Positions 6,995 through 23,974 of a stretch of 64,000 nucleotides of DNA are shown piece by piece. Source of the stretch: an uncultured Candidatus Rokubacteria bacterium (GTDB taxonomy: Bacteria > Methylomirabilota > Methylomirabilia > Rokubacteriales > DASRDR01); assembly GCA_963826115.1 (NCBI GenBank), contig CAWGVS010000002.1:176122-240121 (forward strand), read 5' to 3'. The notes under the pieces were generated by a model that made no database searches, was not told where the DNA came from, and saw nothing but the letters and a program-made list of their open reading frames with translations. Numbering within the stretch: the stretch's first letter is position 1; each line of letters starts with the position of its first letter. The position numbers and the translations under genes were made by a program.

Positions 6995-9739
6995 TCAGAG
7001 GAGCTCGAATGCCTCCAGCGTCAGCCCGAGCGGCACCGGCCGGTCCCGGCCGACGACGGCCCGGACGGCCCGCGGCCCCCAGTCCTCGATCGCGTCGCCC
7101 GTGCGCGCTCCGCGCACGCCGATCAGGACGTGGGACCACCCCGGCATCCCCCTGAGATCCGCGCGACCGCCGACGGCGCCGAGCGCGCGCACGGCGCGCT
7201 CGCTGAGCTGGGACTCCGCCCCGTCCGTCGCGACCGCGACGACGATCGTGCCCTCCGGCCAGCCGCCCACGTACGCCGCGAGCCGCTCCGACTCCTCGCC
7301 GGGCTCGCGCGTGTCGAAGCGGCGCGTGCCCAGGACACGGCCGTCGGTCGGCGCCAGGGCCGCGACCCAGTAGCCGCGGCAGCGGACGCCCGCCAGCTCG
7401 CGCCCGTTGACCCGGACGGAGACGAGGCCGTGGGGGCCGCCCGCGCTCCGCACGTCCAGATCGACGGGGGAGGACTGCCCCGTCCTGCCGATCCGGTAGG
7501 GCGCGCTTCGCGTCACGGCCGACGGGATGTCGTAGACGTGCTGGAAGACCAGCTCGTTCCGATCGGCGTCGGGAAACGGCGGCGGCAGGACGGCGCGGCC
7601 GGACACGGGCCCGGTCGCGGTCTCGAGGAGCCGGCCGTTGAAGCGCACCTCGACCCGCCGGTGGACCTCCGGATCCTCCCCCGCGAGCCGGAGCGCGTAC
7701 GCGGCCTGCGGGTGGCGCCGAACGAAGTCCGACGAGAACTGGCGGCGGATCACGGCGCCCGTCTCCGGCGTCGGGGTCACCCGGTAGACCTCATCGTCGC
7801 GCTCGAACGTCCGGACGAGCCCCAGGCCCGGCACGCCACCCTCGCGCAGGAGCTCCCACATGGGCCGCCACGTCCGGCCGAGCCCCAGGCCGCGGTGGAC
7901 GACGACGTACCGGACGGGATAGATCGCCCGGATGGCCGTGCTGAGCCGGTCGGGATCCCGCGCCTCGGCGGCCCACACCAGCTCCTCCCAGTGCGGGAGC
8001 GCGAAGCCGCCGTGCCCGTTCACGACGCGCTTGCCGTGGTCCACCGCCCAGAGCATCGCCCACGCGTCCGCGCCCTTGTCGTGGATCGGCAGCTGCAGGA
8101 TGGCGAGGTCCCCGGGCTCGTCGCGGAGCCAGTCGTAGACCGCGGGCCTCGACGGGGACCGGTGCCAGGGCAGCGGCACCACGGCCAGCTCCACCAGCAC
8201 GAGGGCCAGCAGGGCGCCGGGCGCCAGCCGGGCCCACGGTCCGGAGAAGCGCGCCCCGATGGCGCGGACCCCCAGGGCCGCGAGCAGCGCGAGCGGGAGC
8301 GCGAAGACGAGGCTCCAGCGCCCCGGGGCCCGAAACGCGCTGCCGCCCGGCACGTGGAGGTACACCCAACGAAAGAGCGTCGCGCCCCACGCCTCGCCGA
8401 ACAGGATGATGGTCGGCGCCAGACAGAGAAGGTAGGCGAGGAGCGCGAGGAACAGGAGCACGAGCATCCACTCTCGCGGTCCGAGGGCACCGCGGGCGCG
8501 GCGGCGCCCCTCGAGCCCGAGCCACACCAGGGCCAGCAACGGGAGCGCGTTCACCGCCAGGGTCAGGTCGCGAACCGCCAGCGCCCCGAGAACGCCCCCC
8601 CGCGGGGCCCGACCGAGCGCGAGGGCCAGCCCGATCGCGCCGAGGACGGCCGCCGCGAGACCGAGGAGGCCCCACCGCGCGCGACGCACCCATCCCGGGA
8701 GCGCCGGCGGGCCCGACGCCCGCGCGTGGAGGACGACGGCCGCCCCCGCCAGGAGGAGCGCCGCGAACCCCGGAAACAGGCCGCCCTCCGGCCGCCCGAG
8801 CGACATGAGGCGGTGCCGGTAGAAGCGGCTGAACTCCGCCGGATCCAGGATGGACAGGAGCTCCATCCCGAACACGTCGCCCTCCGCGAGGGTTCGCTGG
8901 AACCCGAGCTCCCGGTGCACGCTCACGTACGGCCACAGGAAGGGCGCGAGGGCGAGCCCGAGCCCGGCACCGGCCACCCCGAGGCGCCCGGCGAGGCTCC
9001 ACGTCAGCCGATCCGGTCGGAGCACGAAGAGCCCGAGGAGGAGGCCGCCCACGAGGATCGCGAGCGCGTAGCCGTTGTAGAGCGACGACAGCATCTGGGC
9101 CCACCCGGCGACCGCCGCCAGCCACAGGTGGCCCGGCCGTCCGTCGATGACGAAGCGATACAGCGCCCAGACGATGAGCGGGAACAGCACCGCCTGCTGG
9201 TAGGTGAACTGCCCGAGGTGGTCCATGCGGTTCGGATAGAACGCGAAGATCGCGCCCGCCACGAGCCCCGGGATCACCCCGCCGGTCACCGCGCGCGTCA
9301 GCACGTACGTCAGGACGCCGCTCGCCGTCAGACCCGCGAGGAGGAGGAGGTTCACGGCCAGGAGCGGCTCGATCCCCGTCGCGAGGAGCGGCGCGGCCAG
9401 GAGTCCCGTGAAGAACGCCGACTGCTGGTACGCGACGCCGTTCGCGTAGGGGTAGTAGAAGGGCACCTGGAACAGGCGCGTGGGGTCGCGGAACGTCTGC
9501 CGCGCGTTCCACGCCACCATGCTGGTCTCGGTCAGGTAGTCGCCGTGGCCGCCCCGCAGGGTGAGCCGGGGGTGGAGGGCCAGCGGGTACGTGTAGACCA
9601 CCGTGGCGGCGCCGAAGAAGGCCGTGATCAGGAGCGCGTGCGTCAGGCGCCGGAGCCGCGGCCGCGCGCCGCTCACGGGCCGCGCGGTCGCGACCGACGC
9701 GGTCCCGCCGGCCGGGCGGTCAGGCGAGGTCGCGGTCAA
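6995..9739 (-). CDS. Multi-pass membrane protein, GT-C/YfhO-like glycosyltransferase with C-terminal ILEI/PANDER-like domain
   Basis: Many TM helices; GDYLTE, FYYPY, FRAPGRW and VVNGHGGF motifs; C-terminal GTIVVAVATDG...RALGAVGG...WSHVLIGVRG resembles ILEI; alternative GTG start at 9676. Confidence 0.65.
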   Translation of the reverse strand: MTATSPDRPAGGTASVATARPVSGARPRLRRLTHALLITAFFGAATVVYTYPLALHPRLTLRGGHGDYLTETSMVAWNARQTFRDPTRLFQVPFYYPYANGVAYQQSAFFTGLLAAPLLATGIEPLLAVNLLLLAGLTASGVLTYVLTRAVTGGVIPGLVAGAIFAFYPNRMDHLGQFTYQQAVLFPLIVWALYRFVIDGRPGHLWLAAVAGWAQMLSSLYNGYALAILVGGLLLGLFVLRPDRLTWSLAGRLGVAGAGLGLALAPFLWPYVSVHRELGFQRTLAEGDVFGMELLSILDPAEFSRFYRHRLMSLGRPEGGLFPGFAALLLAGAAVVLHARASGPPALPGWVRRARWGLLGLAAAVLGAIGLALALGRAPRGGVLGALAVRDLTLAVNALPLLALVWLGLEGRRRARGALGPREWMLVLLFLALLAYLLCLAPTIILFGEAWGATLFRWVYLHVPGGSAFRAPGRWSLVFALPLALLAALGVRAIGARFSGPWARLAPGALLALVLVELAVVPLPWHRSPSRPAVYDWLRDEPGDLAILQLPIHDKGADAWAMLWAVDHGKRVVNGHGGFALPHWEELVWAAEARDPDRLSTAIRAIYPVRYVVVHRGLGLGRTWRPMWELLREGGVPGLGLVRTFERDDEVYRVTPTPETGAVIRRQFSSDFVRRHPQAAYALRLAGEDPEVHRRVEVRFNGRLLETATGPVSGRAVLPPPFPDADRNELVFQHVYDIPSAVTRSAPYRIGRTGQSSPVDLDVRSAGGPHGLVSVRVNGRELAGVRCRGYWVAALAPTDGRVLGTRRFDTREPGEESERLAAYVGGWPEGTIVVAVATDGAESQLSERAVRALGAVGGRADLRGMPGWSHVLIGVRGARTGDAIEDWGPRAVRAVVGRDRPVPLGLTLEAFELL

Positions 9740-10976
9740 GGCGGAGGAGCAGCTCCAGGAGCACCCGGGCGCCGGTCACCAGGTGGTCGACGTCGGCCCA
9801 CTCCTCCGGGCAGTGGCTGCGGCCGTCGCGGCAAGGGATGAAGAGGAGCCCGATCGGGCAGAGCCGCGCCATGTGATTCGCGTCGTGGCTGGCGCCGCTC
9901 GTGAGACGCCGGTGGGGGATCCCGAGCGCCGATGCCGCGGCGTCCGCGGCGGCCACCATCTCGGGCGCCACGGTGAGGGGCGGGTCCCGCATGAGGACGG
10001 TCCACTCGACGGCGACGGCGCGCCGCGCGGCGATCTCCCGTGTCCCGGTCTCGAAGCGCGCCAGCGTCTCGGCGATCGCGGGTGGGTCGATCCCACGGAA
10101 GTCCACGAGGAGATCCGCCTCCCCGGGGACGATGTTGATCATGTTCGGGCGCGCCTCGACGACGCCGACCGTCCCCACCATCCCGCGGCCGGCCTCGCGC
10201 GCGACCTGCTCCACGAGCAGGACGATCTCCGCGGCCGCCGCGACCGCGTCCCGCCGATCCGCCATCGGCGTCCCGCCCGCGTGGTCCTGGCGGCCCCGCA
10301 CCGCGACCCGGTAGCGGCTCGGCGCCGCGATGGCGGTCACCACGCCGAGCGGCAGACCCGCCCGGTCGAGCGAGACCGCCTGCTCGATGTGGAGCTCGAG
10401 GTACCGGAGGACGTCGCCGGACGACCGCCGCGCGCCGTCGAGGGCCGCGCCACGCCCGCCCACCGAGTCGACCGCGTCGGCGAGGCTCTGTCCCACGCGG
10501 TCGCGGAGCCCGACCGCGGTGGCGGCGTCCAGCTTGCCGCTCATCGCGCGGCTGCCGATCGTCGAGAGGCCGAAGTCCGACGGCTCCTCGCAGGTGAAGT
10601 TGATCACCTCGAACGGGTGCGCGAGCCGGTGACCGGCCGCCTCGAGGCAGCGAGCCACCTCGAGGCCCGCCAGGACGCCCGCGATCCCGTCGAAGCGCCC
10701 GCCCGCCTCGACGGTGTCGAGATGCGAGCCGATCACGAGCGCGGGCCCCGGACCGCCGCGCCGCCCGATCTGGTTGCCGGCGGCGTCGACCGACGGGGTG
10801 AGCCCCGCCTCCGCCATCCGCCGGGTGAGCCACTGGCGCGCCGCGCGATCCTCGTCGGAGAAGGCCCGGCGCGTGTACGGCCGGTCCGGCCGCGTGAAGG
10901 CCTCGAGCGCGCGGAGGTCGGCCGCGAGCCGCTCCGGCGACGGGCGCGGCAGGCCCGCAGAGCGGGCGTCAGGCAC
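9720..10976 (-). CDS. M20 Zn-dependent hydrolase (allantoate amidohydrolase / N-carbamoyl-L-amino acid hydrolase family)
   Basis: GSHLDTV, GRFDG, EE, ELHIEQ, HAGGTPM, SGASHDA and SHCPEE motifs. Confidence 0.9.
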   Translation of the reverse strand: MPDARSAGLPRPSPERLAADLRALEAFTRPDRPYTRRAFSDEDRAARQWLTRRMAEAGLTPSVDAAGNQIGRRGGPGPALVIGSHLDTVEAGGRFDGIAGVLAGLEVARCLEAAGHRLAHPFEVINFTCEEPSDFGLSTIGSRAMSGKLDAATAVGLRDRVGQSLADAVDSVGGRGAALDGARRSSGDVLRYLELHIEQAVSLDRAGLPLGVVTAIAAPSRYRVAVRGRQDHAGGTPMADRRDAVAAAAEIVLLVEQVAREAGRGMVGTVGVVEARPNMINIVPGEADLLVDFRGIDPPAIAETLARFETGTREIAARRAVAVEWTVLMRDPPLTVAPEMVAAADAAASALGIPHRRLTSGASHDANHMARLCPIGLLFIPCRDGRSHCPEEWADVDHLVTGARVLLELLLRLDRDLA

Positions 10977-11009
10977 GCGCCGCGCTCCGCTGCCGGGCCG
11001 CGGCGGCGC

Positions 11010-11897
11010 TCATCGCGGCAGGACCGCCTCGGCGAGCGTCCCGGCGATCGCGGTCAAGGCCCGCGCCGCCGCCGCGTCGGGGTGCTCGAGCACGAACGGC
11101 CGGCCGCGGTCCGCGGCCGCGGCGAGCCGCGGGTCGAACGGCACGCGCCCGAGGAAGGCCACGCCGTGCTGGGCAGCCGTCGCTTCCCCGCCGGGACCGT
11201 CGAAGAGCGGCCCGACGGCGCCGCAGGTCGGACAGGCGTAGCCCGCCATGTTCTCGATCAGCCCGAGCAGACGCGCCCCCCGCTCGCGCGCGAGGGTCAT
11301 CGCGCGGCGCACGACGAGGTGCGAGACGGCCGAGGGAATCGTGACGACCACGGCGCCGGTCAGGCCGGGCAGGAGGTCGAGGAGCGTCGGCAATCGCTCG
11401 GCGCCCGGCGGCAGGTCGAGGAGCAGCACGTCGAGGGCGCCCCATGCCGTGTCCGCGAGGAACTCCCGGAGCGCGGTCCCCTCCATGGTCCCGCGCCAGG
11501 TGTGCGCCTCGGCCTGGGTCGGCGCGTCCCAGACCACGGGCGTGTCGTCGCCGGGCAGGAGGAGGTCCATCGACAGGACCCGGATCCCGTCGGCCGACAC
11601 GGCGGGGCGAACGCCGTCGGGCGCGACCTCCAGCGTCTGGCCGCGCACGCCGAGCATCTTGCCCATCGACGGGCCGTTCAGGTCCGCGTCGAGCACGCCG
11701 ACGGCGAGCCCGCGCGCGGCGAGGGCGCCCGCGAGGTTCGCGGTCACCGAGCTCTTCCCCACCCCGCCCTTCCCCGAAACGACCGCGACGCTCGCGCGGA
11801 CCGGCGCCATCCGGGCGGCGAGCCGCGTCTGCTGCGCGACCACCTGCTCCACGATGTTCGAGCCGCCGTCGCCCGCAATGTCGCGATAGCCCTTCAT
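11010..11897 (-). CDS. Mrp/NBP35 (ApbC) family Fe-S carrier P-loop ATPase
   Basis: ATG 11897 overlaps the upstream stop; SGKGGVGKS deviant Walker A, DADLNGPS, DLPPG, ENMAGYACPTC; no N-terminal MIP18 domain. Confidence 0.9.
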   Translation of the reverse strand: MKGYRDIAGDGGSNIVEQVVAQQTRLAARMAPVRASVAVVSGKGGVGKSSVTANLAGALAARGLAVGVLDADLNGPSMGKMLGVRGQTLEVAPDGVRPAVSADGIRVLSMDLLLPGDDTPVVWDAPTQAEAHTWRGTMEGTALREFLADTAWGALDVLLLDLPPGAERLPTLLDLLPGLTGAVVVTIPSAVSHLVVRRAMTLARERGARLLGLIENMAGYACPTCGAVGPLFDGPGGEATAAQHGVAFLGRVPFDPRLAAAADRGRPFVLEHPDAAAARALTAIAGTLAEAVLPR

Positions 11898-12913
11898 GCG
11901 CCGCTGCCCTCGTCGCTGGTGTCGAGCGGGGCCGACGCGGGGTCCCGCAGGTGCGCGCGGAAGCGCCGCATGAGGTCCTGCCCGAGGAAGTCCCCGGGGG
12001 CGCCATGCCGCTCGGCCTCGAAATAGTGCCGGATCCGGTCGAGCCGCTCCTGCGCCTCCGGGTTCAGACTGACGGTGCGGATCTCGGCCTTCGCGGCGTC
12101 GAACGCGTCGAAGGTGAGCTCGGTGAAGCCGAGCTCGCGGATGCGCTTGACGGCCTTCATCATCGCCTGGTTCCGGAACCGCGTGAGGAGCGGCGAGTCG
12201 ATCTCCGCCACGCCCATCCGCCGGGCGCGCCGCTCCGCCGCCTTGCGGATGCCCTCGCGCACGAACTCCGGAGCCGTCTGGAGCCGCGCCCAGGCCTCGG
12301 GGCGCCACCGGACCGGCGTGTCGGGCGCCGCCTGCCAGAGCCGGTCGACGACCTCCGCGGTGACCCGCTCGTACCCGGCGCGCCGGGCCTCGACCTCGAC
12401 GTCTCGCTGGAAGAGGCGGAGCACGAAGTCCGCCATCATGGCCGGGGCCTTGCCGAGTCGCGCGACGAGCCGGGCCTCCGCGTCGGGCGTCCAGGGGAGC
12501 GGCGCCGCGGCCGCCTCGGTCTCGGCTTCCGCCTCGGCCTCCCGGATCAGATCATGTGTCACCGCGACCGCTCCGCGCTCGGCGGCCAGCTCCTCGCAGA
12601 TCCGGCGCGTCATGGGCCGCATGAAGGAGGGCGCCGCCTCGAGCACCGCCAGCGCCTCCGGCGTCCACGGCGGGGCGGACTGCGGGACCTGGTAGGCGCC
12701 GCTCTCGGCGAGGCCCATCATCTCGCTCTTGTAGCGGGTCATGAGCTCGGGCGTGATCACCTCCACGCCCTCGGCGCGCGCCCGCCGCTCGGCCAGCCGC
12801 CGGACCATGCCCCGGAGGAAGAACGGCGCGCGCGCGACCCGCGCCTCGGCCTCCGGCGTCCAGCGCACCTCGCCGGACGGGGGCGGGGCCGGCGCGCCGG
12901 ATGCGCCGCTCAC
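11894..12913 (-). CDS. Protein of four tandem PCP_red-like (PF08369-type) domains
   Basis: GTG 12913 overlaps the upstream TGA; four repeats begin WTPEAEAR, WTPEALAV, WTPDAEAR and WRPEAWAR, each continuing P.F/M...E..A...G...I/V-T/D. Confidence 0.8.
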   Translation of the reverse strand: MSGASGAPAPPPSGEVRWTPEAEARVARAPFFLRGMVRRLAERRARAEGVEVITPELMTRYKSEMMGLAESGAYQVPQSAPPWTPEALAVLEAAPSFMRPMTRRICEELAAERGAVAVTHDLIREAEAEAETEAAAAPLPWTPDAEARLVARLGKAPAMMADFVLRLFQRDVEVEARRAGYERVTAEVVDRLWQAAPDTPVRWRPEAWARLQTAPEFVREGIRKAAERRARRMGVAEIDSPLLTRFRNQAMMKAVKRIRELGFTELTFDAFDAAKAEIRTVSLNPEAQERLDRIRHYFEAERHGAPGDFLGQDLMRRFRAHLRDPASAPLDTSDEGSGA

Positions 12914-13335
12914 GCCTCGCGGCTCCACGCCGCCCGCGCGAGGATCACGGCCGTGAAGATCGTGAGGAGGCAGAAGGCCCACGCGCCCACGCGCATCGGC
13001 ACGTCGAGCCCGAGGACGGGGATGGTCTCCGCGCGAGGCGCCCGGGCGATCCGCGCCACCTCGATCGCGCGGATGGCGACCAGCAGGGTCAGGATGCGGG
13101 CGAAGTCCCGGCGGGAGAGGAGCCAGCGATCGAGCCACCCGCGCTCCTTCACAAGGAGCCACGGAATCACGATCACGAACAGCGCGCCGACGACGAACCA
13201 CGCCGCGCCCCCACGCTCCATTCCCCGTGGGCCGAGGCCGCTCTGCGCGAGCGCGAGCCCCCCGAGCCAGTAGACGACGCCGTAGGCGACGTACGTCCAT
13301 GCGGCCTGGCGGTAGAGCGCGTCCCGCGGGGCCAT
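12910..13335 (-). CDS. Hypothetical membrane protein, about 4 TM helices
   Basis: 141 aa, hydrophobic, tightly packed in the operon. Confidence 0.7.
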   Translation of the reverse strand: MAPRDALYRQAAWTYVAYGVVYWLGGLALAQSGLGPRGMERGGAAWFVVGALFVIVIPWLLVKERGWLDRWLLSRRDFARILTLLVAIRAIEVARIARAPRAETIPVLGLDVPMRVGAWAFCLLTIFTAVILARAAWSREA

Positions 13336-13342
13336 CCCGCGC

Positions 13343-14719
13343 TCAGCCGTCCCCGGCCGTGGGCGGGCGGCCGGCCGCGGGCGTGAACGGCCGCCCCGGC
13401 GAGATGCCCCAGCGGCTCCGCACCTCGGCGAGGATCGCCGGGGTCACGGTCGTCTGCCCCTGGCCGCGCGCGTAGGCCTCGACCGCCTGGACGACCATGG
13501 CGCGGGCGAACGCCGGGATCGCGTCGAGCCGCGCCCGGGCCGCCGGCTCCCACGCGAGCGCGAACCGCGCCTCGAGCCCGAACGTCTGCTCGACCCCGAG
13601 CCGGATCAGCTCGCCGCCGTGGGCGCCGGGCTGGTAGCCGCAAGCCGGGTCCTCGGCGAGATAGTCGCCGTAGGTCGCGTAGGCGCGGCAGCGGCAGCCG
13701 CCGCAGAGCTCGCGGAACTCGCAGGCGCCGCAGCGCCCGCCGAGCGGCCGGTGACGGAGCTCCGTGAAGACTTCCGCCCGTTCCCAGAGCTCGGCGAAGC
13801 CGGTCTCGCGCAGGTTGCCGGCGGACACCGGCATGTACGGGCACGGCGTCACGTCGCCCGTCGGCGTGATGCGGCAGTAGTACTTCCCGGCCGGGCACGA
13901 GCCGTGCGCGTAGTTCGCGAGCAGCGGCGAGCTCGGGTCCAGCTCGTAGAGCACCCGCCGGAAGTGGGGCGCGCACTTCGCGCGGATCAGGAGGCCGCCG
14001 GCCCGGCCGACGGGCACGCTCCAGGGGTCCTCGCGCCGCTCGAGCACGGAGTCGGACGCGGAGCTCTCTGGCGCGCGGCCCGCCCCCTGAGTCCGGGCCA
14101 GATAGGTCAGGATCTCCTCGTACTGCGCGGGTGTGATGTCGGTGAGCCCTTCGCCGCGGCCTGTCCGGACGAGGAAGAAGAAGTTGAGGACCCGCGCCCC
14201 GAGCTCCCGCGCGAGGTCGATCATCGCGGGGATCTCGCCGACGTTCCAGTCGGTGACGCTCATGTGGAGCGAGAAGTCGATGCGCTCCGCCCGGAGGGCC
14301 TCGGTCGCCCGGATGGCGCCCTTCCAGGCGCCGGGCAGATGCCGGAACTCGTCATGACGCGCGGCATCGACCGAGTCGAGGGAGAGCGACGCCCCCTGGA
14401 CGCCGTGGGTCTTCATGAGGCGCGCCTGCTTCGCGCGGAGGAGGACGCCGTTGGTCCCGAGGACGACCGTGAAGCCGTGCTCCCGCCCCTCGGCCGCCAG
14501 CTCGAAGATGTCCGGACGCAGCAGCGGCTCGCCGCCGGTGAGGATCAGGAAGGTCCCGGGGTTCACGCGGGCCATGTCCGCCATCACCCGGCGGCACTCC
14601 TCCGTCGAGAGCTCGCCCGCCGCCGAGGCGCTCGGGGCCCCGCTGATGTAGCAGTGGGCGCAGAAGAGGTTGCAGCGCTGGGTGAGGTTCCAGGAGACCG
14701 CGTACGCCTTGTACGTCAC
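13343..14719 (-). CDS. Radical SAM/SPASM protein, AhbD/NirJ-like (tetrapyrrole-modifying family), with C-terminal PCP_red-like domain
   Basis: WNLTQRCNLFCAHC, TGGEPLLR, KCAPHF; SPASM CPAG...C...PCPY...CGACEFRELCGGCRCRAY...DPAC; C-terminal WEPAARARLDAIPAFARAMV...VT. Confidence 0.85.
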   Translation of the reverse strand: MTYKAYAVSWNLTQRCNLFCAHCYISGAPSASAAGELSTEECRRVMADMARVNPGTFLILTGGEPLLRPDIFELAAEGREHGFTVVLGTNGVLLRAKQARLMKTHGVQGASLSLDSVDAARHDEFRHLPGAWKGAIRATEALRAERIDFSLHMSVTDWNVGEIPAMIDLARELGARVLNFFFLVRTGRGEGLTDITPAQYEEILTYLARTQGAGRAPESSASDSVLERREDPWSVPVGRAGGLLIRAKCAPHFRRVLYELDPSSPLLANYAHGSCPAGKYYCRITPTGDVTPCPYMPVSAGNLRETGFAELWERAEVFTELRHRPLGGRCGACEFRELCGGCRCRAYATYGDYLAEDPACGYQPGAHGGELIRLGVEQTFGLEARFALAWEPAARARLDAIPAFARAMVVQAVEAYARGQGQTTVTPAILAEVRSRWGISPGRPFTPAAGRPPTAGDG

Positions 14720-14805
14720 TGGATGACGGCCGGTTGCGCCTCGACCGGGGCTTTTCCCGCGAGGACGCTCAGCGAGCCGGCGATGAACGCGCGCCTGGCC
14801 AGCAT
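14716..14805 (-). CDS. Possible 29-aa small ORF resembling an orphan twin-arginine signal peptide
   Basis: MLARRAFIAGSLSVLAGKAPVEAQPAVIQ*; its TGA overlaps the radical SAM GTG; no clear RBS. Confidence 0.3.
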   Translation of the reverse strand: MLARRAFIAGSLSVLAGKAPVEAQPAVIQ

Positions 14806-14879
14806 CGGAGGGCGCCCGCTCTCGCCAGCCGCCACCGTGGCAACGCCCCGCGCGGCCTCGACCGACGTGACCTCGCCGC

Positions 14880-16781
14880 CTAGCCCTGCGGCTTGTTCTT
14901 GATGTAGCCGGCGATGACCTCGTTCATCGTGGTGCGGGCGTGGCCGATCCCCTCCTCGCAGACGTCGAGATCGATGAATCCGACCTGCTTCTCCCCCGCC
15001 ACCTTCTCGATCGCCTCGCGGGTCATGTCGCGCATGAAGCCGGCCGGCACGCGGTTCAGACGGGCGACGGCGTCCTCGGTCCACGTGAAGGCGCCGTTCG
15101 GGTCGGTCACGTCCTTGAGGGTCGCCCCGGCGAACTTCGTGTTGGCAATGAGCGTGTCCCAGCCGTCGCCGAGCTTGTCGCGCCCGACCGTCTCCTCGAT
15201 GAGCGGGAAGGCGACCTCCTTCGTGATGACGGGGAGCTTCCGCGTCCGCGCGTACTTCTCGATCCGCGCCTTCGCGCGCCGGCGGAGGTAGGCGTCGGTG
15301 ACCTGGCGGAGCCCCTCCCGCGCGTCGTTGGCCCAGCGGACCGTCACGCCGGGCATGACCTCCTCCTCGGCGATCCCGCCCTCCAGGGTGGCGATCTGCT
15401 CCACCGCCTTCCGGTCGACGAGGGTGAACGCCTCCGGGCCGCCCGAGCAGACCGGGCACTTCACGACGGGGTTCGGGCCCTTCACGACGTACCCGCAGAC
15501 CGAGCAGATCGCCGTCACGGCGGCGTCCTCGGCCCGGAGCTTCGCGACCGCCAGGTCCTCGGCGAGGATCTGCATCTTCTCGGCCATGCGGCCGGGCATG
15601 AAGATCGCCATCGCCTCGTCGATGACCTTCGAGGTGATGACGGTGTGCCCCTGCTCGATCGCGTAGCGGAGGAGCGCCGTGCGCGCCACCCCGGCCACCT
15701 GCTCGGGCACGCGCTTCATCCGGTCCCGGGCCTCGTCCGTCCAGGCGATGATCTCCTCGGCCTTGACGTCGAGCGGCGGGTAGAACTTGCCGCCCACCAG
15801 CAGCACGTTGCACGGGGCCAGGCGGAGCAGGTTCTCCGTGTTCGAGCCGAGGTCCGCCTCCCGCTCGTCCGAGTGGACGCCGATGCGTCCGAGGATCAGG
15901 AGCCAGGGCTGCTCCTTCCGGCAGAACTGGAGCACCTTCTCGAAGCACTTGCCGTCGAGCAGCGTGATCGCGAGGTCGACCCCCTCATCGGCCGCGAGCT
16001 TCCGGCCGATCTCGAGGTGCGACTGGTAGATCTTCGCGAGCCCCGTGTCGATGATCTCCTCGTGGAGCTGCTCCTGCTCCTTGAAGCGGAACACCTTCGA
16101 GGCCTGCTCGGTGAGCACGCCGACGATCCCGTTGAACATGGCGTAGTGGAGGTACGGGTCGTACACCGCGACCGCGTGGACCGGCCGGCGGAGGGCCTTC
16201 CCCAGCGCGATGCCGACCTTGAGCCCGTAGAAGGACTGCGGGCTCCCGTCGAGGCCGACGACGATCGCGCCCTGCTGTGCCTCCAGGGGCTCCAGGCTCC
16301 GGATCACCAGCGTGTCGGCCGTGACCTTCCGGATGAAGCGCTCGGTCACCGAGCCGAGCTGGCTGTCGCGCACCGCGCCCAGGCCCAGCGCGCCCATGAT
16401 GACGAGGTCGTAGTCCTTGCCCTGCACGTCGTCGATCAGGGCCTTGTAGTGCTTGCCGTCCATCATCCGCGGCTCGAAGGGCAGCCCGGCGGCCTCGGTC
16501 TTCTTCCGCATGACCTCGAGGTAGGAATCGGACACGAGCTGGAGGCCCATGGCGATCAGCGAGTCGTGGATCTTTCGCTGGCGCTCGAGCTCGTGCTCGT
16601 CCCGGTACTCCTCGGGCAGCGTGTACTCCATCTGCTTGAAGCGGTAGTCGTGGAGCCGCGCCGCGTACACGTGGCAGCCGGTCAGGGTCGAGCCGAAGGC
16701 CCGCCCGAGCTCCACGGCGAGGTCGATCGCGCGGTTGGAGTAGTCCGAGTTGTCGACCGGAACGTAGATCTTGCCGAACAT
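14880..16781 (-). CDS. Universal stress protein fusion: USP-USP-PCP_red-rubredoxin-like-PCP_red-PCP_red
   Basis: AAGGAG RBS, ATG 16781; KIYVPVDNS and IVVGLDGS USP starts; GALGLG...LGSVTE and LGSNTE motifs; CSVC...CPVC; three W(T/A)xxA repeats. Confidence 0.85.
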   Translation of the reverse strand: MFGKIYVPVDNSDYSNRAIDLAVELGRAFGSTLTGCHVYAARLHDYRFKQMEYTLPEEYRDEHELERQRKIHDSLIAMGLQLVSDSYLEVMRKKTEAAGLPFEPRMMDGKHYKALIDDVQGKDYDLVIMGALGLGAVRDSQLGSVTERFIRKVTADTLVIRSLEPLEAQQGAIVVGLDGSPQSFYGLKVGIALGKALRRPVHAVAVYDPYLHYAMFNGIVGVLTEQASKVFRFKEQEQLHEEIIDTGLAKIYQSHLEIGRKLAADEGVDLAITLLDGKCFEKVLQFCRKEQPWLLILGRIGVHSDEREADLGSNTENLLRLAPCNVLLVGGKFYPPLDVKAEEIIAWTDEARDRMKRVPEQVAGVARTALLRYAIEQGHTVITSKVIDEAMAIFMPGRMAEKMQILAEDLAVAKLRAEDAAVTAICSVCGYVVKGPNPVVKCPVCSGGPEAFTLVDRKAVEQIATLEGGIAEEEVMPGVTVRWANDAREGLRQVTDAYLRRRAKARIEKYARTRKLPVITKEVAFPLIEETVGRDKLGDGWDTLIANTKFAGATLKDVTDPNGAFTWTEDAVARLNRVPAGFMRDMTREAIEKVAGEKQVGFIDLDVCEEGIGHARTTMNEVIAGYIKNKPQG

Positions 16782-16819
16782 GGAAGCCTCCTTGCGCAGC
16801 ACGGGGGGCGGCGCCGGGG

Positions 16820-17584
16820 TCACTTGAGCTCGAACTCGACCGCGACCTCGCCCTTCGCCGGCACCGTCACCTCCTGGGTGAGGACGCGGGGGGGGTCGTA
16901 GAGGGGGCGGCCGTCCTTGTCCTTGCCCGTCGCCACCCAGCCTTCGTGCCAGGCGGTGACGCGGTAGCGTCCCGGCGGGATCTCGTCGATGCGGAACTGT
17001 CCATTGTCGTCCGTGACCGCGAAGTAGGGGTTCTCGCGCACGACGATCCAGGCCCGCATGTGGGTATGCGCGTCGCAGACGACCTCGATGACGCCGGGCT
17101 TCTTGATGCGCTGCGAGACGTCGACGGCCTGGTCCTTCGTGGGCAGCGCGATGTTGAACACCGTCAGGCGATCGAGGTAGCCGTGGGTGTTGTGGAGCAC
17201 CGGATCGGTGTTCTTGATCCGCACCTTGGCCCCCGCCATCACCGCGGAGACGTGCGGCACGAAGAGGCACTTCGCGTTGTCCAGCTCGAAGTCCGGCGCG
17301 CGCTTGCCCCGCTCGACACCCTCGAGCGCCACCACCGTGCCGCGGACGCCGCCGGTCGCGCCCACCACCAGCGCCTCCGAGGGCTTGTGCTCGCCACAGA
17401 CGTCCGTGTTCTTCCGCACGGCCAGGAGCTCCGCTTTCGGCGGCTCGCCCGCGAGCCCGACGCGCCCCACCAGGACGCCGCCGTCGGGCACCGGGGCCTC
17501 GACGTAGGGCGCCGCCGACCGGGCCACGCCCGCGAGCCCGAGGCCCAGCGCGAGGAGAAGCACGGCGAGACCACGAGCGCGCAT
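16820..17584 (-). CDS. Secreted carboxypeptidase-regulatory-like / cupredoxin-like protein
   Basis: Signal peptide; LHNTH...CDAHTHM; paralogous to 24761..25459. Confidence 0.7.
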   Translation of the reverse strand: MRARGLAVLLLALGLGLAGVARSAAPYVEAPVPDGGVLVGRVGLAGEPPKAELLAVRKNTDVCGEHKPSEALVVGATGGVRGTVVALEGVERGKRAPDFELDNAKCLFVPHVSAVMAGAKVRIKNTDPVLHNTHGYLDRLTVFNIALPTKDQAVDVSQRIKKPGVIEVVCDAHTHMRAWIVVRENPYFAVTDDNGQFRIDEIPPGRYRVTAWHEGWVATGKDKDGRPLYDPPRVLTQEVTVPAKGEVAVEFELK

Positions 17585-17596
17585 CCTAGCCCCGTC

Positions 17597-17989
17597 TCAC
17601 GGCGCGCCCGCCGAGCCCGGCCCGGAGCGCCCGCCCTCGGTCGGATCCACCAGGTGATCGAGCGCCAGCCAGATGGCCTTGCTGTACCGAAACGACCAGA
17701 GCGGGAACAGCACCGCGAAGGCGCCCCAGATCGTCACCTGCCATCCCGGCGAGGGCGCGAGCCAGGCCTCCAGGAGGAAGTACCCGGCGAGGGCGAGGCC
17801 CACCGTCAGACCGTAGTTGATGTAGATCGCGCCAATGAAGTACCCCGCCTCGCGCTCGAACTGGAGCCCGCAGACCGGGCAGCGGGGCCGCATCCGGACC
17901 AGGCCGGTGAACAGCGACGCGCCGCCGCAGCGCGGGCAGCGCAGTCCGAGCCCCCGCCGGACCGCCAGGGCCAGTCGCGTGCGATCCAC
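17597..17989 (-). CDS. DUF983-family membrane protein with zinc ribbon
   Basis: RCPRCG...CPVCG...EREAGYF followed by two TM helices. Confidence 0.75.
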   Translation of the reverse strand: MDRTRLALAVRRGLGLRCPRCGGASLFTGLVRMRPRCPVCGLQFEREAGYFIGAIYINYGLTVGLALAGYFLLEAWLAPSPGWQVTIWGAFAVLFPLWSFRYSKAIWLALDHLVDPTEGGRSGPGSAGAP

Positions 17990-18011
17990 GGGCCCGCGCC
18001 CTCACGCCCGC

Positions 18012-18425
18012 TCATCCATGGTAGAGCATCCAGTACACCACCACGCCGGTCACCGACACGTAGAGCCAGATCGGGAAGGTGACGCGGGCCAGGCGCGCGT
18101 GGCGCGTGAACTGCGCCCGGAGCGCGCGGTAGAGCGTCGTCCCGACGAGGGGGACGATCGCCACCGCCAGCACGGTGTGCGTGATCAGGATCACGAAGTA
18201 GACCGGCCGCAGCCACCCGCCGCCCGCGTACGGGCGCGAGCCCACCTGCGCGTGGTAGGTCAGGTACGAGACGAGGAAGAGGACCGAGAGGGCAACCGCG
18301 GTCAGCATGCAGGCCCGGTGGACGGCGACCCGCCCCTGCCGGATGGCCACGAAGCCGGCCACGAGCGCCACCGCCGCGGAGGCGTTCAGCACGGCGTTGA
18401 CCGTGGGCAGGACCGCGAGGGTCAC
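18012..18425 (-). CDS. DUF420 family membrane protein (cox-associated)
   Basis: LPTVNAVLN, HRACM, FLVSYL, YFVILITH and IWLYVSVTGVVVY motifs. Confidence 0.85.
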   Translation of the reverse strand: MTLAVLPTVNAVLNASAAVALVAGFVAIRQGRVAVHRACMLTAVALSVLFLVSYLTYHAQVGSRPYAGGGWLRPVYFVILITHTVLAVAIVPLVGTTLYRALRAQFTRHARLARVTFPIWLYVSVTGVVVYWMLYHG

Positions 18426-18456
18426 CGGCCGGCGGGCCGCGGAGACGGGTACCCCG

Positions 18457-18783
18457 TCAATGCTTGGGTGCCTCGAGCTTCTTCTCGGCGGCGGTCTGGC
18501 GCGGCGGGTTCAGCGAGTCCGGCAGCAGCACCAGCACCAGGAGCGTGCCGATCAGGACGGGCGTCAGGGCAATGTAGCCGAGCGTCTTCGTCTCGAGCTT
18601 GAGGTGCATGAAGTAGAGGGCGACCATCGCCGCCTTCGCCGAGGCGAGCGAGACCAGCAGGATGGCGATCACGGTATGGGGAAGGGGCATGAAGATGACC
18701 CCGATCTCGACCACCGTGAGCACCGCCAGGTACCAGAAGATGGCCATGTAGCTCGGGCCGTGCTTCGCATGGGAGTCCGCCAT
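18457..18783 (-). CDS. ctaF: Cytochrome c oxidase subunit IV
   Basis: LAVLTVVE and KAAMVALYFMHLKLE motifs. Confidence 0.85.
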   Translation of the reverse strand: MADSHAKHGPSYMAIFWYLAVLTVVEIGVIFMPLPHTVIAILLVSLASAKAAMVALYFMHLKLETKTLGYIALTPVLIGTLLVLVLLPDSLNPPRQTAAEKKLEAPKH

Positions 18784-18805
18784 CGCGCGCCTCCGCCTCG
18801 TCCGG

Positions 18806-19429
18806 CTACAGGAGGTAGATGAAGGTGAACACCATGATCCAGACCAGGTCGACGAAGTGCCAGTACAGCCCGGCCACCTCCGCGACCATGTAGTTGTAGC
18901 GCATGTCCTTCACGCGGCTGATAACCCGCCAGATCACCAGGAGGTAGATCACGCCCGCCGTCACGTGGAGCCCGTGGAAGCCGGTGATGATGAAGAAGCT
19001 GGCCCCGAACAGGGTGGCGCCCCACGGGTTCCCGAAGACCATGAGCCCGCGCTCGATCAGGTGCGTCCACTCGAAGACCTGGAGTCCGACGAAGATCGCG
19101 CCGCCGGCCGCGGTCAGCAGCACGAACTTCTTCGCGCGGGCCAGGTCGGACGCCTGGAGGGCCTCGAGGGCCTTCACCATCGTGACGCTCGAGCAGATCA
19201 GGAGGAACGTCATGAGCGCGGTGAGCTGGATGCCGAGTACCTGGGCCGGGTTTGGCCAGTCGACGCTCCCCGCCCGCATCGCGCCGTAGGACGCCAGGAG
19301 TACGCCGAAGCCCACGGCGTCTCCCGCCAGGAAGACCCACATCCCGAGCTTGCCCCAGCTCTCCGGCGTCAGGGGCGACTCGGCCGGCTCGACGGCCGGA
19401 TGGTGCAGGGCAGTTGCCGCGTCGCTCAC
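18806..19429 (-). CDS. ctaE: Heme-copper oxidase subunit III (copy 1)
   Basis: GTG 19429; KLGMWVFL, TGFHGLHV and GLYWHFVDLVW motifs. Confidence 0.85.
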   Translation of the reverse strand: MSDAATALHHPAVEPAESPLTPESWGKLGMWVFLAGDAVGFGVLLASYGAMRAGSVDWPNPAQVLGIQLTALMTFLLICSSVTMVKALEALQASDLARAKKFVLLTAAGGAIFVGLQVFEWTHLIERGLMVFGNPWGATLFGASFFIITGFHGLHVTAGVIYLLVIWRVISRVKDMRYNYMVAEVAGLYWHFVDLVWIMVFTFIYLL

Positions 19430-19451
19430 GATCCGCTCTCCTTCCGTGCGG

Positions 19452-20147
19452 TCATGCGAGGTAGACGAGCACGTACAAGACCGGCCAGAGGGCCACCACG
19501 AAGTGCCAGTAGATCGCGCAGCAGTCGAGCGCCGCGTACCGCTCCGCGGTGAACCGGCCGCGCCGCGCGAGCCAGAGCATCGCGCCCAGCCAGGCCGCCG
19601 CGCCGAACACGTGGGCCGCATGCACGCCGATCAGCGTGTAGAACGTGGCTCCGTAGACTCCCGACGACACCCGCAGTCCGAAATGGACGAGCCGTGTCCA
19701 CTCGACCCCCTGGACCACCAGGAACAGCGCGCCGAGCCCCCAGGTCCAGGCGAGCCCGCGCACGAGCCCGGCCCGGTCGCCCGCCCGGACGGCGCGGAGC
19801 GCCCGCACGAGGGTCCAGCTCGACGCGAGCAGGACGAGCGTGTTCACCGCGGTGAGGCCGATGGGGAGCCGCGGCTGGCCGGGCGGCGGCCAGACCGCCG
19901 CCCCCAGCCGCAGCTGGAGGAAGGCGAGCACCAGGCCCCCGAAGAACATGCTCTCCCCGGCGAGGAGCATCCCCATCGCGAGGCGGGCGTTCGAGAGCGG
20001 CGGCCCGTCGGGCCCCGGGGCCCGCTCGCCCTCCCCGTTCCCCTCGTGGGGTCCCGGCGGGCCCGGGATCCGGCCGCCCCGATCGGGGACGCGGTCCCGC
20101 TGGATCTCCGCGGGGCGCACCTCGAGGTCGAGCACGGGCGTGGCCAC
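19452..20147 (-). CDS. ctaE: Heme-copper oxidase subunit III (copy 2)
   Basis: GTG 20147; ESMFFGGL, NTLVLLASS, FYTLIGVHAAHV and YWHFV motifs. Confidence 0.85.
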   Translation of the reverse strand: MATPVLDLEVRPAEIQRDRVPDRGGRIPGPPGPHEGNGEGERAPGPDGPPLSNARLAMGMLLAGESMFFGGLVLAFLQLRLGAAVWPPPGQPRLPIGLTAVNTLVLLASSWTLVRALRAVRAGDRAGLVRGLAWTWGLGALFLVVQGVEWTRLVHFGLRVSSGVYGATFYTLIGVHAAHVFGAAAWLGAMLWLARRGRFTAERYAALDCCAIYWHFVVALWPVLYVLVYLA

Positions 20148-20149
20148 GC

Positions 20150-20311
20150 TCAGTTCCGCAGCCAGGCCACGGCGGCCGAGACGAGCATGAGCACGACGAT
20201 CCACGCCACGAGCCCCCACGCGGTTCGGCGGTTTCGGGTCGCCAGCGAGCTCGGGAGCGCCGGGCGCGGCTCGACGGGTGACGCGGGAACCACGGACGCG
20301 CGCGGGGGCAT
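20150..20311 (-). CDS. Small single-TM hypothetical protein (53 aa)
   Basis: Fills the gap between ctaB and subunit III; RNRRTAWGLVAWIVVLMLVSAAVAWLRN. Confidence 0.55.
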   Translation of the reverse strand: MPPRASVVPASPVEPRPALPSSLATRNRRTAWGLVAWIVVLMLVSAAVAWLRN

Positions 20312-20315
20312 CGGG

Positions 20316-21227
20316 CTAGCCCACCTTGTCCAGCGCCATGAGGGCAAGGAGGAGCGGCAGGTACACGACCGAGGCGATGACGACCCGCCGCGCGGCGGAC
20401 TCGGAGGGCCGGAGGGCCTGCGCCGCGCCGGTGGCCAGGAAGAGCGCGCCGAGGAGCAGGGCGCCGAAGAAGTACACGCCGCCCGTCAGCCCCACCAGGG
20501 TCGGCAGGAGCGCCACCGCGTGGAGCGCGAGGCAACCCGTCACGATCTGGCGCTCGGTGCTCCCGCCGTCCGGGTCCACCACGGGCAGGACCCGGATCCC
20601 CGCGCGCGCGTAGTCGTCGCGGTACAGGCGGGCGATGGCCAGCGTGTGCGGGAGCTGCCAGAGGAACAGGATCGCGAAGAGCACGCCGGCGCCGATCCCC
20701 AGCTCGCCGCGCGCTGCGACCCATCCCGCCACCGGCGGCAAGGCGCCCGGCACCGCGCCGAGCACGGTGCAGAGCGGGCTCACCTGCTTGAGCGGCGTGT
20801 AGACGCCGAGGTAGAGCGCCGACGTCACCGCGGTGACCGCGGTCACCCCGGGACCGACCGCCACGAGGAGGTACAGGAGGCCGCCGAACGTCGCCAGGAC
20901 GCCGAAGGCCGCGGCCTCGCCCGGCTGGAGCCGCCCGTCGGGCAACGGCCGCCCGCGGGTACGGAGCATCCGCGCGTCCACCTCGCGCTCGAGGAACTGG
21001 TTGAGCGCGAGGGTCCCCCCGGCGGCCAGGGCGGTCCCCACGAGGACGTGGAGCACCTGCAGGTAGTCGAGGTCTCGGGACGCGCCGAGGTAGTACCCGA
21101 CGAGCGTGGTCAGCACGACCATCAGGACGACGCGGGGCTTGGCGAGCGACAGGAAGTCCGCGAGGCGGCGCCGGGTGCCCGCGAGCGCCACCGCGCTCTC
21201 GCGCACGACCGCGGTCCGGGACGTCAT
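20316..21227 (-). CDS. ctaB: Protoheme IX farnesyltransferase (heme O synthase)
   Basis: LAKPRV, NQFLEREVDARMLRTRGRPLP, YTPLK, GAVPGALPP, WQLPH and DDY motifs. Confidence 0.93.
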   Translation of the reverse strand: MTSRTAVVRESAVALAGTRRRLADFLSLAKPRVVLMVVLTTLVGYYLGASRDLDYLQVLHVLVGTALAAGGTLALNQFLEREVDARMLRTRGRPLPDGRLQPGEAAAFGVLATFGGLLYLLVAVGPGVTAVTAVTSALYLGVYTPLKQVSPLCTVLGAVPGALPPVAGWVAARGELGIGAGVLFAILFLWQLPHTLAIARLYRDDYARAGIRVLPVVDPDGGSTERQIVTGCLALHAVALLPTLVGLTGGVYFFGALLLGALFLATGAAQALRPSESAARRVVIASVVYLPLLLALMALDKVG

Positions 21228-22144
21228 GCCAGCGCCTCCGTCCGGACCGGCGCGGCCCGGCGCTGCGCGCGGGTCTCGGCGCCGAGCGCGCGCCGCCGGC
21301 CGAGCTGGAGCGCGAGGGCCACCGCGCTCCCCAGGATCAGTGCGCCCACGACCCGGTGGAGCACCGGGAGGGCGACCACGGAGAGCTGCCCCCCCGGCAC
21401 CCAGAGGCTCGTGAAGCGGACCGTGTAGGCGCCGAGCCCGAGGAGGACCTGGACCAGGAGGAGCACCTTCACGGCGCGCGCCCACCAGGCGAGGACCGGG
21501 TCCTCCCCGGCGGCCCGAAGGACCGCGAGGGCCACGCCGACCAGGACGGCGAGCGTCACGACCGCCCCGGCGACGTGCCACCAGACCGCCGGGCCGTGCG
21601 TCGTGAAGGCGCCGAGGACGACCTGGCCGTAGACGACGACCACCGCGAACCGGCCGAGCACGGCCAGCCGGTCGATCCGCTCCGGCGCGGCGGACAGCGC
21701 CTGCCAGCCGCGGCCCGTCACCACCGCGATCCCGACCAGGAGCCCGAAGAACACCTGGGCGAGACAGCCGTGGACGACGGCCAGCGCATCCTGCAGGAGC
21801 ACGACACGGAGTCCCCCGATCAGCCCCTGGATCCCCACCAGGACGACAGCCAGGGCGCCCAGGCCCCGTACCCAGCGGCGCGCCTCACCGAGCCACAGGG
21901 CCACCGCCAAGAGGGCGGTGAGGAGCCCGATCGTGGCCCCGAGGAGGCGATGGCCGTGCTCGACCAGGACGCCCCCCACCATCCCCGACCACGGGAACAG
22001 GAAGAGGTTGTGCCCGAAGGTGGTGGGCCAGTCGGGCACCGCCAGCGCCGCGCCCGTGTTGGTGACGAGCCCGCCGGCCACGATCAGGCCGGCGGTCGCG
22101 CCCGCCGTCACGCACGCCAGGCGATGCGGCCACCCGACAGCCAC
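21224..22144 (-). CDS. ctaA: Heme A synthase (COX15/CtaA), lacking the loop cysteines
   Basis: GGLVT...AVPDWP, EHGHR, QGLIGGLRV and three further conserved His. Confidence 0.85.
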   Translation of the reverse strand: MAVGWPHRLACVTAGATAGLIVAGGLVTNTGAALAVPDWPTTFGHNLFLFPWSGMVGGVLVEHGHRLLGATIGLLTALLAVALWLGEARRWVRGLGALAVVLVGIQGLIGGLRVVLLQDALAVVHGCLAQVFFGLLVGIAVVTGRGWQALSAAPERIDRLAVLGRFAVVVVYGQVVLGAFTTHGPAVWWHVAGAVVTLAVLVGVALAVLRAAGEDPVLAWWARAVKVLLLVQVLLGLGAYTVRFTSLWVPGGQLSVVALPVLHRVVGALILGSAVALALQLGRRRALGAETRAQRRAAPVRTEALA

Positions 22145-22176
22145 CCGCGTCCCCTCCCGCGTCCCGCCCGGACCCG

Positions 22177-23925: not shown

Positions 23926-23974
23926 CGTTGTTCCTATCCTCCCTTGCGAGAGACCTCAGTCCGGCGGGTCCGGC

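Follow-up and report, generated by a model that had tools for sequence, protein, structure and literature searches.

This report concerns a run of genes on the minus strand of a 64-kb stretch of DNA (the window; G+C content ~72%) from an uncultured Candidatus Rokubacteria bacterium. The genes lie between positions 11010 and 16781 and encode a fusion protein with two universal stress protein (USP) domains, a radical S-adenosylmethionine (SAM) enzyme, a small membrane protein, a protein with four PCP_red domains (the 4x protein) and an Mrp-type ATPase. They form a real, conserved module, which is found together with terminal oxidases in many phyla. We tentatively propose that this module is a multi-phylum accessory set for supplying cofactors to, and assembling, a bd-like (candidate OR-N) oxidase and its EB_dh/cytochrome c partner, a pair that is often in one supercluster with an A-type haem-copper oxidase. 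At its core, the most likely reaction is the decarboxylation of a tetrapyrrole in the manner of AhbD, dedicated to the bd-like/EB_dh oxidase complex. The module is previously undescribed in the literature searched; the PCP_red domain and the AhbD, Mrp and tandem USP families are already known.

Eight PCP_red domains in three neighbouring genes

A preliminary description of this DNA had recognized eight copies of one motif in three neighbouring genes (four, one and three copies) and had identified it as PCP_red, and Pfam bears this out. PF08369 is a 45-position profile with a gathering score of 32.5 bits per protein. It matches the 4x protein (11894-12913, minus strand; 339 aa) in four stretches (E = 4.5e-42, 142.3 bits), the radical SAM enzyme (13343-14719, minus strand; 458 aa) at residues 390-434 (1.6e-11, 44.5 bits) and the USP fusion (14880-16781, minus strand; 633 aa) in three stretches (1.3e-22, 79.9 bits). 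The two other families named beforehand, PF00582 and PF13186, are matched as well. A hidden Markov model (HMM) made from the eight repeats retrieves the same eight domains.

A six-frame scan of the whole 6.24-Mb genome with PF08369 gave nine matches, eight of which are within the 5.8-kb stretch and the ninth on contig C4. Taken individually, seven of the nine are over the cut-off; six of these are in the module, where the other two domains score 26.6 and 23.5 bits. Eight PCP_red domains clustered in 5.8 kb of a 6.24-Mb genome are not there by chance. All nine belong to the module system and none is in a BchB, the subunit of dark-operative protochlorophyllide reductase (DPOR) that ends in this domain. 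The BchB equivalog models are matched only at positions ~455-533 and stay far below their cut-offs (NF002789, 95.5 bits versus 509; TIGR01278, 85.3 versus 490). There is no BchB-sized nitrogenase-like open reading frame (ORF) among the genome's nine PF08369 matches; no family search for BchN or BchL was made.

The four repeats of the 4x protein are at ~12716-12871, 12524-12676, 12326-12502 and 12161-12316 and are followed by an 85-aa helical tail. The gene had been described as translationally coupled to that for Mrp (11010-11897, minus strand; 295 aa), and the stop and start codons do overlap as ATGA. A similar arrangement is found at the other end of the 4x gene, where its GTG start overlaps the TGA stop of a gene for a 141-aa predicted membrane protein (12910-13335, minus strand) as GTGA. 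This gene occupies what had been taken as a 429-bp gap between the radical SAM and 4x genes.

Conservation of the module across phyla

Relatives of the USP fusion make up 6322 of 8000 scored candidates. In a representative library they form 343 clusters at 50% identity with E ≤1e-30, whose lengths imply variable repeat numbers. With one genome taken per species, a relative is encoded in 594 of the 599 candidate stretches, and so in at least 594 species. The best 80 of the 599 stretches were annotated with the window proteins and the repeat HMM; the locus query was a 13-sequence alignment, a 43-sequence alignment being too diverse. These 80 loci come from Rokubacteria/Methylomirabilota, Poribacteria, Rhodothermales, Acidobacteriota, Latescibacterota and Calditrichia, and further from Planctomycetota, Tectomicrobia/Entotheonella, metagenome-assembled genomes (MAGs) labelled Deferribacteres, TA06 and Krumholzibacteriia. 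Many of the loci end at contig ends, so the counts that follow are lower bounds.

The USP fusion carries three PCP_red domains in 71 of the 80 loci, two in six, one in two and five in one. Mrp is present in 63 loci and a stand-alone PCP_red ORF in 55. The radical SAM enzyme is encoded in 45, and in 41 of these it ends in PCP_red. One or more oxidase genes are found within 10 kb in 67 loci; a cytochrome c/EB_dh gene is present in 29, the bd-like gene in 17 and COX1 in 38. The domain counts per locus give a usual complement of five or six PCP_red domains, and the eight found here (nine genome-wide) are a lineage variant.

Two members were absent from the preliminary description: the 141-aa membrane protein and a Cys4-PCP_red protein. 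The latter is the ninth PCP_red protein of the genome (178 aa; contig C4, ~90133-90669, plus strand, the same as L001:1117-1653) and is unlinked to the module here. Its Cys4 motif is at the N terminus and its PCP_red domain at the C terminus, and a C-P-F motif is invariant. A Cys4-PCP_red ORF directly follows Mrp in 47 of the 80 loci, and the Mrp stop often overlaps its start in several phyla. In the window's genome the 4x protein holds the Mrp-coupled position and the Cys4-PCP_red protein has moved to contig C4. Stand-alone proteins with several PCP_red repeats occur in five of the 80 loci (L019-L021 with four repeats; L037 and L081 with three), and we infer that the 4x protein is a lineage-specific scaffold. 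A feature search of a protein atlas with the Cys4 N-terminal part returned only PCP_red clusters, with scores of 0.83-0.85 that make them leads only.

The 141-aa protein has no Pfam match at E ≤1. Its homologues are found in 16 of the 80 loci, mostly of Rokubacteria: 14 are Rokubacteria-type (of L019-L036 plus L076) and the others are L082 and L087.

Association with a bd-like oxidase

The gene for the bd-like (CydA-related) oxidase subunit I (28612-30561, minus strand) is present as a single copy in the window's genome. Its match to PF01654 is partial (50.7 bits, profile positions 2-240 of 418), and it is a candidate for the OR-N ('bd-like', quinol-free) branch. The partner gene (25477-27825, minus strand) encodes a cytochrome c with three motifs fused to an EB_dh haem-b domain, and such a gene also adjoins the bd-like gene in related loci. 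Both genes are on the same strand as the module and further upstream than a haem-copper oxidase operon. The preliminary description had linked the module to this co-oriented bd-like oxidase or EB_dh cytochrome; an aa3-type oxidase operon intervenes before the bd-like gene.

The bd-like gene is directly adjacent in loci of Acidobacteriota, Rhodothermales, Calditrichia, Latescibacterota and Methylomirabilis. The gene order in these five lineages is bd-like, cytochrome c/EB_dh and then the module or parts of it, with a haem-copper oxidase sometimes after. The bd-like pair and the module are separated in Rokubacteria and Poribacteria by an inserted haem-copper oxidase operon that includes CtaA/CtaB; the bd-like gene is just upstream of that operon, outside the 10-kb flank, in five of five Poribacteria genomes. 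Additionally, genomes that have the module but no oxidase neighbour encode a bd-like homologue elsewhere in five of five cases (45-61% identity).

The co-occurrence of these genes was tallied over 151 Methylomirabilota genomes, each ≥80% complete and up to five of them unpublished (G034, G052, G063, G105 and G147). The USP fusion and the bd-like gene are both present in 87 genomes, the USP fusion only in 10, the bd-like gene only in seven and neither in 47. The corresponding numbers are 90, seven, five and 49 for the USP fusion and the radical SAM enzyme, and 88, seven, six and 50 for the radical SAM enzyme and the bd-like gene. The module thus tracks the bd-like gene, which is one half of the comparison that had been suggested at the outset. 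The other half, separating the bd-like from the aa3 oxidase as the client, failed within Methylomirabilota, where the whole supercluster is gained or lost as a unit. COX1 homologues are present in 142 of the 151 genomes, and the module-less genera keep only a 47-49% paralogue.

The radical SAM enzyme

The protein encoded at 13343-14719 matches Radical_SAM PF04055 (5.1e-22) and SPASM PF13186 (3e-10), and its C-terminal PCP_red is at ~13409-13561. The CxxxCxxC motif (C16/C20/C23) is invariant in 30 sequences of several phyla, as are eight further cysteines (C249, C275, C293, C330, C333, C339, C342 and C360). An AlphaFold model (predicted local distance difference test, pLDDT, 82.8; predicted template modelling score, pTM, 0.82) places the PCP_red helices at residues 392-437 after a short low-confidence linker. 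The enzyme had been described as an AhbD/NirJ-type tetrapyrrole enzyme. AhbD (TIGR04545, 298.6 bits) and NirJ2 (292.4 bits) are indeed the closest NCBIfam models, but both matches are under the cut-off of 500; the third is TIGR04053 (249.8 bits versus a cut-off of 395). The match to AhbD spans profile positions 2-339 and is split by an insertion into two segments (2-203 and 211-339).

SPASM enzymes can also be peptide maturases, and we considered whether this one acts on a peptide or an oxidase subunit, with PCP_red as a domain like the RiPP recognition element (RRE; RiPP, ribosomally synthesized and post-translationally modified peptide) and the 4x protein as substrate or decoy. The nearest solved folds are the SPASM enzymes PqqE, SkfB, SuiB, CteB and anSME, and a small domain that is both stand-alone and fused is the pattern of the RRE in RiPP maturases. 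There is no AhbD-, NirJ- or AhbC-named chain among the solved-chain sequence matches (E ≤1e-5) or the listed fold matches, so this fold ranking says little about the substrate. The NCBIfam models for peptide maturases reach ≤143 bits, against 250-300 for tetrapyrrole enzymes, and the 4x protein is absent from most lineages. There is a 29-codon ORF (14720-14806, minus strand) in the 160-bp spacer upstream of the radical SAM gene, which has a twin-arginine-like RR-x-F-I motif and ends on the GTG start. We rejected it as a precursor peptide because no similar peptide, and no conserved small ORF, is found upstream of the radical SAM gene in 23 related loci. Taken together, the data make a protein-modifying maturase highly improbable.

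Two observations concern the ends of this gene in other genomes. In L019 the spacer upstream of the radical SAM gene holds what appears to be the tail of another gene instead. Six-frame matches to the radical SAM enzyme in about 20 related genomes cross one TGA near the C-terminal end; the orthologue probably stops there, and the alignment would then run on into the spacer.

The haem route of the host

The window's genome encodes a ferrochelatase and a ChdC-like protein of the Chlor_dismutase family (237 aa; contig C5:904976-905686, minus strand), whose Pfam match is confined to the C-terminal half of the profile. HemF and AhbA/B (PF17805) were not found in this genome and nor was a true HemN, the best match being 119.6 bits against a cut-off of 325; none of its proteins passes the AhbD cut-off. 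This combination suggests the coproporphyrin route. Five of five other module genomes gave a ChdC-like match, and HemF was not found in them. According to two reviews, AhbD is the oxygen-independent coproheme decarboxylase of some coproporphyrin-route organisms that have no other Ahb enzymes (PMC13564367; PMC7242693). As the genome looks to use the coproporphyrin route, oxygen-independent decarboxylation of coproheme is the most economical chemistry for the radical SAM enzyme. CtaA and CtaB are encoded in the module's own gene row.

The same data could be read in a simpler way, with the radical SAM enzyme as the cell-wide AhbD coproheme decarboxylase, its neighbours as helpers or bystanders and the oxidase linkage as a reflection of haem demand. 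The enzymes found and missing in the six module genomes and the published cases of AhbD without other Ahb genes would all fit, and some homologues are named 'AdoMet-dependent heme synthase' by the Joint Genome Institute (JGI). However, the score of 298.6 bits is well short of the AhbD cut-off, the extra PCP_red domain is present in 120 of the 120 best radical SAM homologues, and the gene tracks both the USP fusion and the bd-like gene in the 151 genomes, whereas haem-needing COX1 homologues are in 142 of them. Nor does the ChdC-like gene behave as a counterpart. It is present with the USP fusion in 57 genomes, the USP fusion only is in 40, the ChdC-like gene only in 21 and neither in 33, which is a weak association and leaves 33 of the 151 genomes with neither the module nor a ChdC-like gene. 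The radical SAM enzyme follows the bd-like gene and the ChdC-like gene is nearly independent, so a purely housekeeping haem role fits poorly, and we regard a general haem synthase as unlikely. A narrower version, a housekeeping AhbD working in a siroheme pathway, is set aside as well, since no AhbA/B was found and presence and absence track the bd-like gene.

We also asked whether the ChdC-like gene is itself a module member and rejected this. It is inside the cluster in two of the 80 loci, both of Poribacteria (L045:18935-19690 and L052:19380-20144; 56% identity to the copy in the window's genome), and its phyletic pattern is nearly independent of the USP fusion.

A further explanation is that the radical SAM enzyme makes an altered haem, for example of chlorin type, that is used only by the bd-like oxidase or the EB_dh cytochrome, with Mrp acting as an ATP-driven reductase like BchL. 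The enzyme is no closer to AhbD than to NirJ2 and falls under both cut-offs, the phyletic link to the bd-like gene is tight, and the available text of two sources on OR-N oxidases does not say which cofactors they contain (10.1101/2021.01.16.426971; PMC12342949). Mrp and BchL are of the same ATPase class, and Mrp has weak NCBIfam matches to BchL and CfbC. Against this, the BchL match covers the P-loop only and there is no evidence for any new haem. To our knowledge, Mrp-type proteins are cluster carriers and not reductases. The non-standard haem that had been raised as a possibility is thus not borne out; known AhbD chemistry on coproheme fits the haem route of the genome and is the simpler account of the data, and we consider an altered haem distinctly unlikely.

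The Mrp ATPase and the PCP_red domain

The module's Mrp is a strong match to the NUBPL/Mrp family (PF10609, 3.6e-72, 243.2 bits), with the P-loop GKGGVGKS and a CxxC motif but without an N-terminal DUF59. It does not reach the equivalog cut-offs for MrpORP (NF041136, 238.7 bits versus 450) or ApbC (NF008669, 167.3 versus 348), and matches only positions 103-351 of the ApbC profile. In an alignment of 29 sequences the Walker A residues G44-S49 are invariant and C222/C225 are kept in at least 90%. There is another Mrp copy, of 40% identity, on contig C5 of the same genome; the module Mrp is a dedicated second copy. Each conserved carrier of PCP_red has a Cys-rich metal site, namely the radical SAM/SPASM enzyme, the USP fusion with its Cys4 knuckle and the Cys4-PCP_red protein with its Cys4 motif and further Cys. 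This suggests that the carriers are clients of the dedicated Mrp.

PCP_red itself was proposed in the preliminary description to be a docking tag. The positions conserved in the repeats are W, A, R, P, E and A. A His, Cys or Met that could bind haem is not among them, which fits a protein-protein module. A complex prediction for an Mrp dimer with the Cys4-PCP_red protein, with alignments as input, gave a score of 0.56 (best of three controls, 0.00). The tool's mark is reached by 58 of 80 solved complexes and two of 110 mismatched pairs, and scores ≤0.60 include only seven of those 80 solved complexes and both of the passing mismatches. At least 65% of contacts agree between runs and the partner pLDDT is at least 64. 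The docking tag therefore gains weak predicted support, and no interface was reported from the runs.

In sequence searches PCP_red matches the last ~50 residues of BchB (3aek_B, 468-520), 2ynm_D and the stand-alone domains 2kru and 2l09. The helix that contacts protochlorophyllide in trans in DPOR is BchB 398-420, according to the available text on that structure, and we rejected the idea that PCP_red is the pigment lid of DPOR because it aligns to BchB 468-520. The accessible part of an electron cryomicroscopy study of DPOR describes a side-on state of the L-protein that touches BchB only, and does not name the contact residues in that text, which makes it a lead only. A broader proposal would make PCP_red a general docking module for dimeric SIMIBI ATPases (the NifH/BchL/Mrp class), which would bring BchL onto BchB in DPOR and, here, the radical SAM enzyme, the Cys4 protein and an ATP-sensing USP onto Mrp, for ATP-driven Fe-S delivery and reduction that makes or inserts the active-site haem of OR-N oxidases, possibly a modified one. 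We think it very unlikely that all of this holds. If it did, the machine would serve the OR-N oxidases of nitrite oxidizers and of many uncultured soil and sponge bacteria.

The USP fusion

The USP fusion matches Usp PF00582 in two stretches (3.9e-36, 125.1 bits) and a rubredoxin-like family (PF21349, 1.1e-06). The order is two ATP-type USP domains, a PCP_red domain, a rubredoxin-like Cys4 knuckle and two more PCP_red domains, the three being at ~15597-15749, 15189-15344 and 14937-15092. The G-x2-G-x9-G motif is invariant in both USP halves (G130/G133/G143 and G298/G301/G312). The predicted model has a pLDDT of 89.8 and a pTM of 0.65, and its best Foldseek matches are the tandem USPs Rv2623 and TTHA0350 with ATP (E = 3e-17 to 4e-15).

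Proposed role of the module

We return to an accessory set for the bd-like oxidase. The radical SAM/SPASM enzyme would act on the side chains of an iron tetrapyrrole as AhbD does, without oxygen, and the reaction would most likely be that of Fe-coproporphyrin III to haem b in a coproporphyrin-route organism. Haem would thus be available to the oxidase where O2 or H2O2 is scarce. We infer the roles of the other proteins from their domains and motifs. The Mrp dimer, with a bridging [4Fe-4S] cluster, may load or repair the metal centres of Cys-rich clients, which would be the radical SAM enzyme with its three clusters, the USP fusion at its Cys4 knuckle and the Cys4-PCP_red protein with its Cys4 and further Cys sites. 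PCP_red may be a small three-helix protein-protein module that gathers the clients, the 4x scaffold and the ATPase. The tandem USP domains could gate assembly through nucleotide binding, and the 141-aa membrane protein could anchor the assembly at the membrane.

Several points weigh against this explanation. The radical SAM enzyme is below every curated NCBIfam cut-off, and the one complex that was predicted has, judged by the calibration of the tool, weak support and no reported interface. PCP_red (BchB 468-520) is outside the pigment helix (398-420), so DPOR gives no direct functional precedent. Ten USP-positive genomes have no bd-like match and seven show the reverse, several of these being incomplete. 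As relatives do not count as independent cases, the tallies make the association look stronger than it is. Finally, the linked type of COX1 is also absent from the module-less genera, and the phylum data therefore cannot separate a bd-like from an aa3 client.

Full-text literature searches gave no functional description of the module or of PCP_red (PF08369) outside DPOR, and the text available to us gives no role for the domain in DPOR itself. The searches also gave no oxidase factor of radical SAM, USP or Mrp type, and no description of the cofactors or assembly of OR-N oxidases in the text available. The main text of a preprint on the cytochrome bd superfamily (10.1101/2021.01.16.426971), as distinct from its supplements with operon contexts, mentions no radical SAM enzyme, and the passage on bd-like oxidases in a 2025 comparison of Nitrospirales (PMC12342949) names no accessory genes; the same source states that the O2 affinity of the OR-N oxidase is not known.

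Nitrospira-type nitrifiers, Rokubacteria, Poribacteria and many further uncultured lineages are presumed to use bd-like (OR-N) enzymes as terminal oxidases. A travelling gene set with a haem-type radical SAM enzyme at its centre is an experimental handle on these oxidases, and co-expression of the module may be needed to obtain an active recombinant bd-like oxidase. The module may also give PCP_red its first role outside chlorophyll synthesis, and there may be a direct coupling between low-oxygen respiration and a haem supply that needs no O2.

Neighbouring genes

An A-type haem-copper oxidase operon with its assembly genes (17597-24760, minus strand) is directly upstream of the module. From upstream to downstream, Pfam assigns COX2 (23975-24760), COX1 (22177-23955), CtaA (21224-22303), CtaB (20316-21581), a first (19452-20315) and a second (18806-19630) COX3, COX4_pro (18457-18909), DUF420 (18012-18509) and DUF983 (17597-18001), all on the minus strand. 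The two COX3-family ORFs are consecutive and overlapping (18806-20315), with COX4_pro, DUF420 and DUF983 after them. The operon is bracketed by a pair of CarboxypepD_reg-like genes with 36% identity, again assigned by Pfam and on the minus strand: one (16820-17584; 254 aa) is directly upstream of the USP gene and its paralogue is at 24966-25616. Relatives of these adjoin USP or COX genes (COX1) in the loci of other phyla. The listed gene row ends with an M20 peptidase (9720-10976, minus strand) and, upstream of the bd-like gene, there is a thioredoxin gene on the opposite strand (30831-31235, plus strand). A consensus scan of 9000-26000 for promoters and terminators gave numbers that were not above those of shuffled sequences (1 versus 0.8 and 4 versus 3.6).

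Other genes accompany the module in related loci. A membrane protein of ~170-185 aa with a weak match to UPF0093 (the HemJ family)/CopD, below the cut-off, is encoded at L045:14992-15549 and in 15 other loci. Its gene follows that for the Cys4-PCP_red protein or immediately precedes the radical SAM gene in Poribacteria, Calditrichia and two unclassified MAGs, and is upstream of the radical SAM gene in the Latescibacterota locus L060. Homology between this protein and the 141-aa protein of the window was rejected, as the hhalign probability is 0.5%. Additional genes are found in the Poribacteria cluster (L045:8892-9545, 12092-13375 and 17464-18317). They encode SCO1/SenC, a BamB/PQQ-like beta-propeller that in 23 loci is placed between USP and Mrp, a 144-aa protein without assignment (11 loci, with Rhodothermales among them) and a HEAT-repeat protein of the PBS-lyase type (five loci).

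Comparison with known systems

The USP fusion resembles Rv2623 and TTHA0350 in fold and in the conserved glycine motif of both USP halves. It differs from them in a long helical insertion in each half (H62-97 and H233-265) and in a 290-residue C-terminal extension with three PCP_red domains and the Cys4 knuckle. Its identity across phyla is 52-57% for most of the relatives listed, which is unusually high for a USP.

With the BchB/ChlB subunit of DPOR and the nuclear magnetic resonance structures 2KRU and 2L09, the module shares the same helical domain of ~45 residues. In contrast with BchB/ChlB, the module proteins have no nitrogenase-like core, and PCP_red is repeated and fused to unrelated enzymes. 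Mrp is like Mrp/NBP35/ApbC/NUBPL proteins in its P-loop, in the conserved CxxC for a bridging cluster and in the strong PF10609 match, whereas, compared with the ApbC and MrpORP carriers, it is below the equivalog cut-offs, lacks DUF59 and is a second copy coupled to PCP_red proteins.

The radical SAM enzyme shares with AhbD and NirJ2 the CxxxCxxC motif and a SPASM domain with two sets of auxiliary-cluster cysteines; the AhbD profile is matched end to end. Coproheme would be the likely intermediate in its host, if that uses the coproporphyrin route as its genes suggest. Unlike AhbD, it has an insertion of ~35 residues (with low pLDDT at 220-233) and the C-terminal PCP_red, and it is encoded with USP, Mrp and Cys4-PCP_red genes beside a bd-like oxidase and not with ahbABC or hem genes. 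Finally, the module is comparable to the CtaA/CtaB, SCO1 and DUF420/CtaM-like assembly sets, which are found in the same gene row as oxidase genes and provide cofactors, but no module protein belongs to their families.

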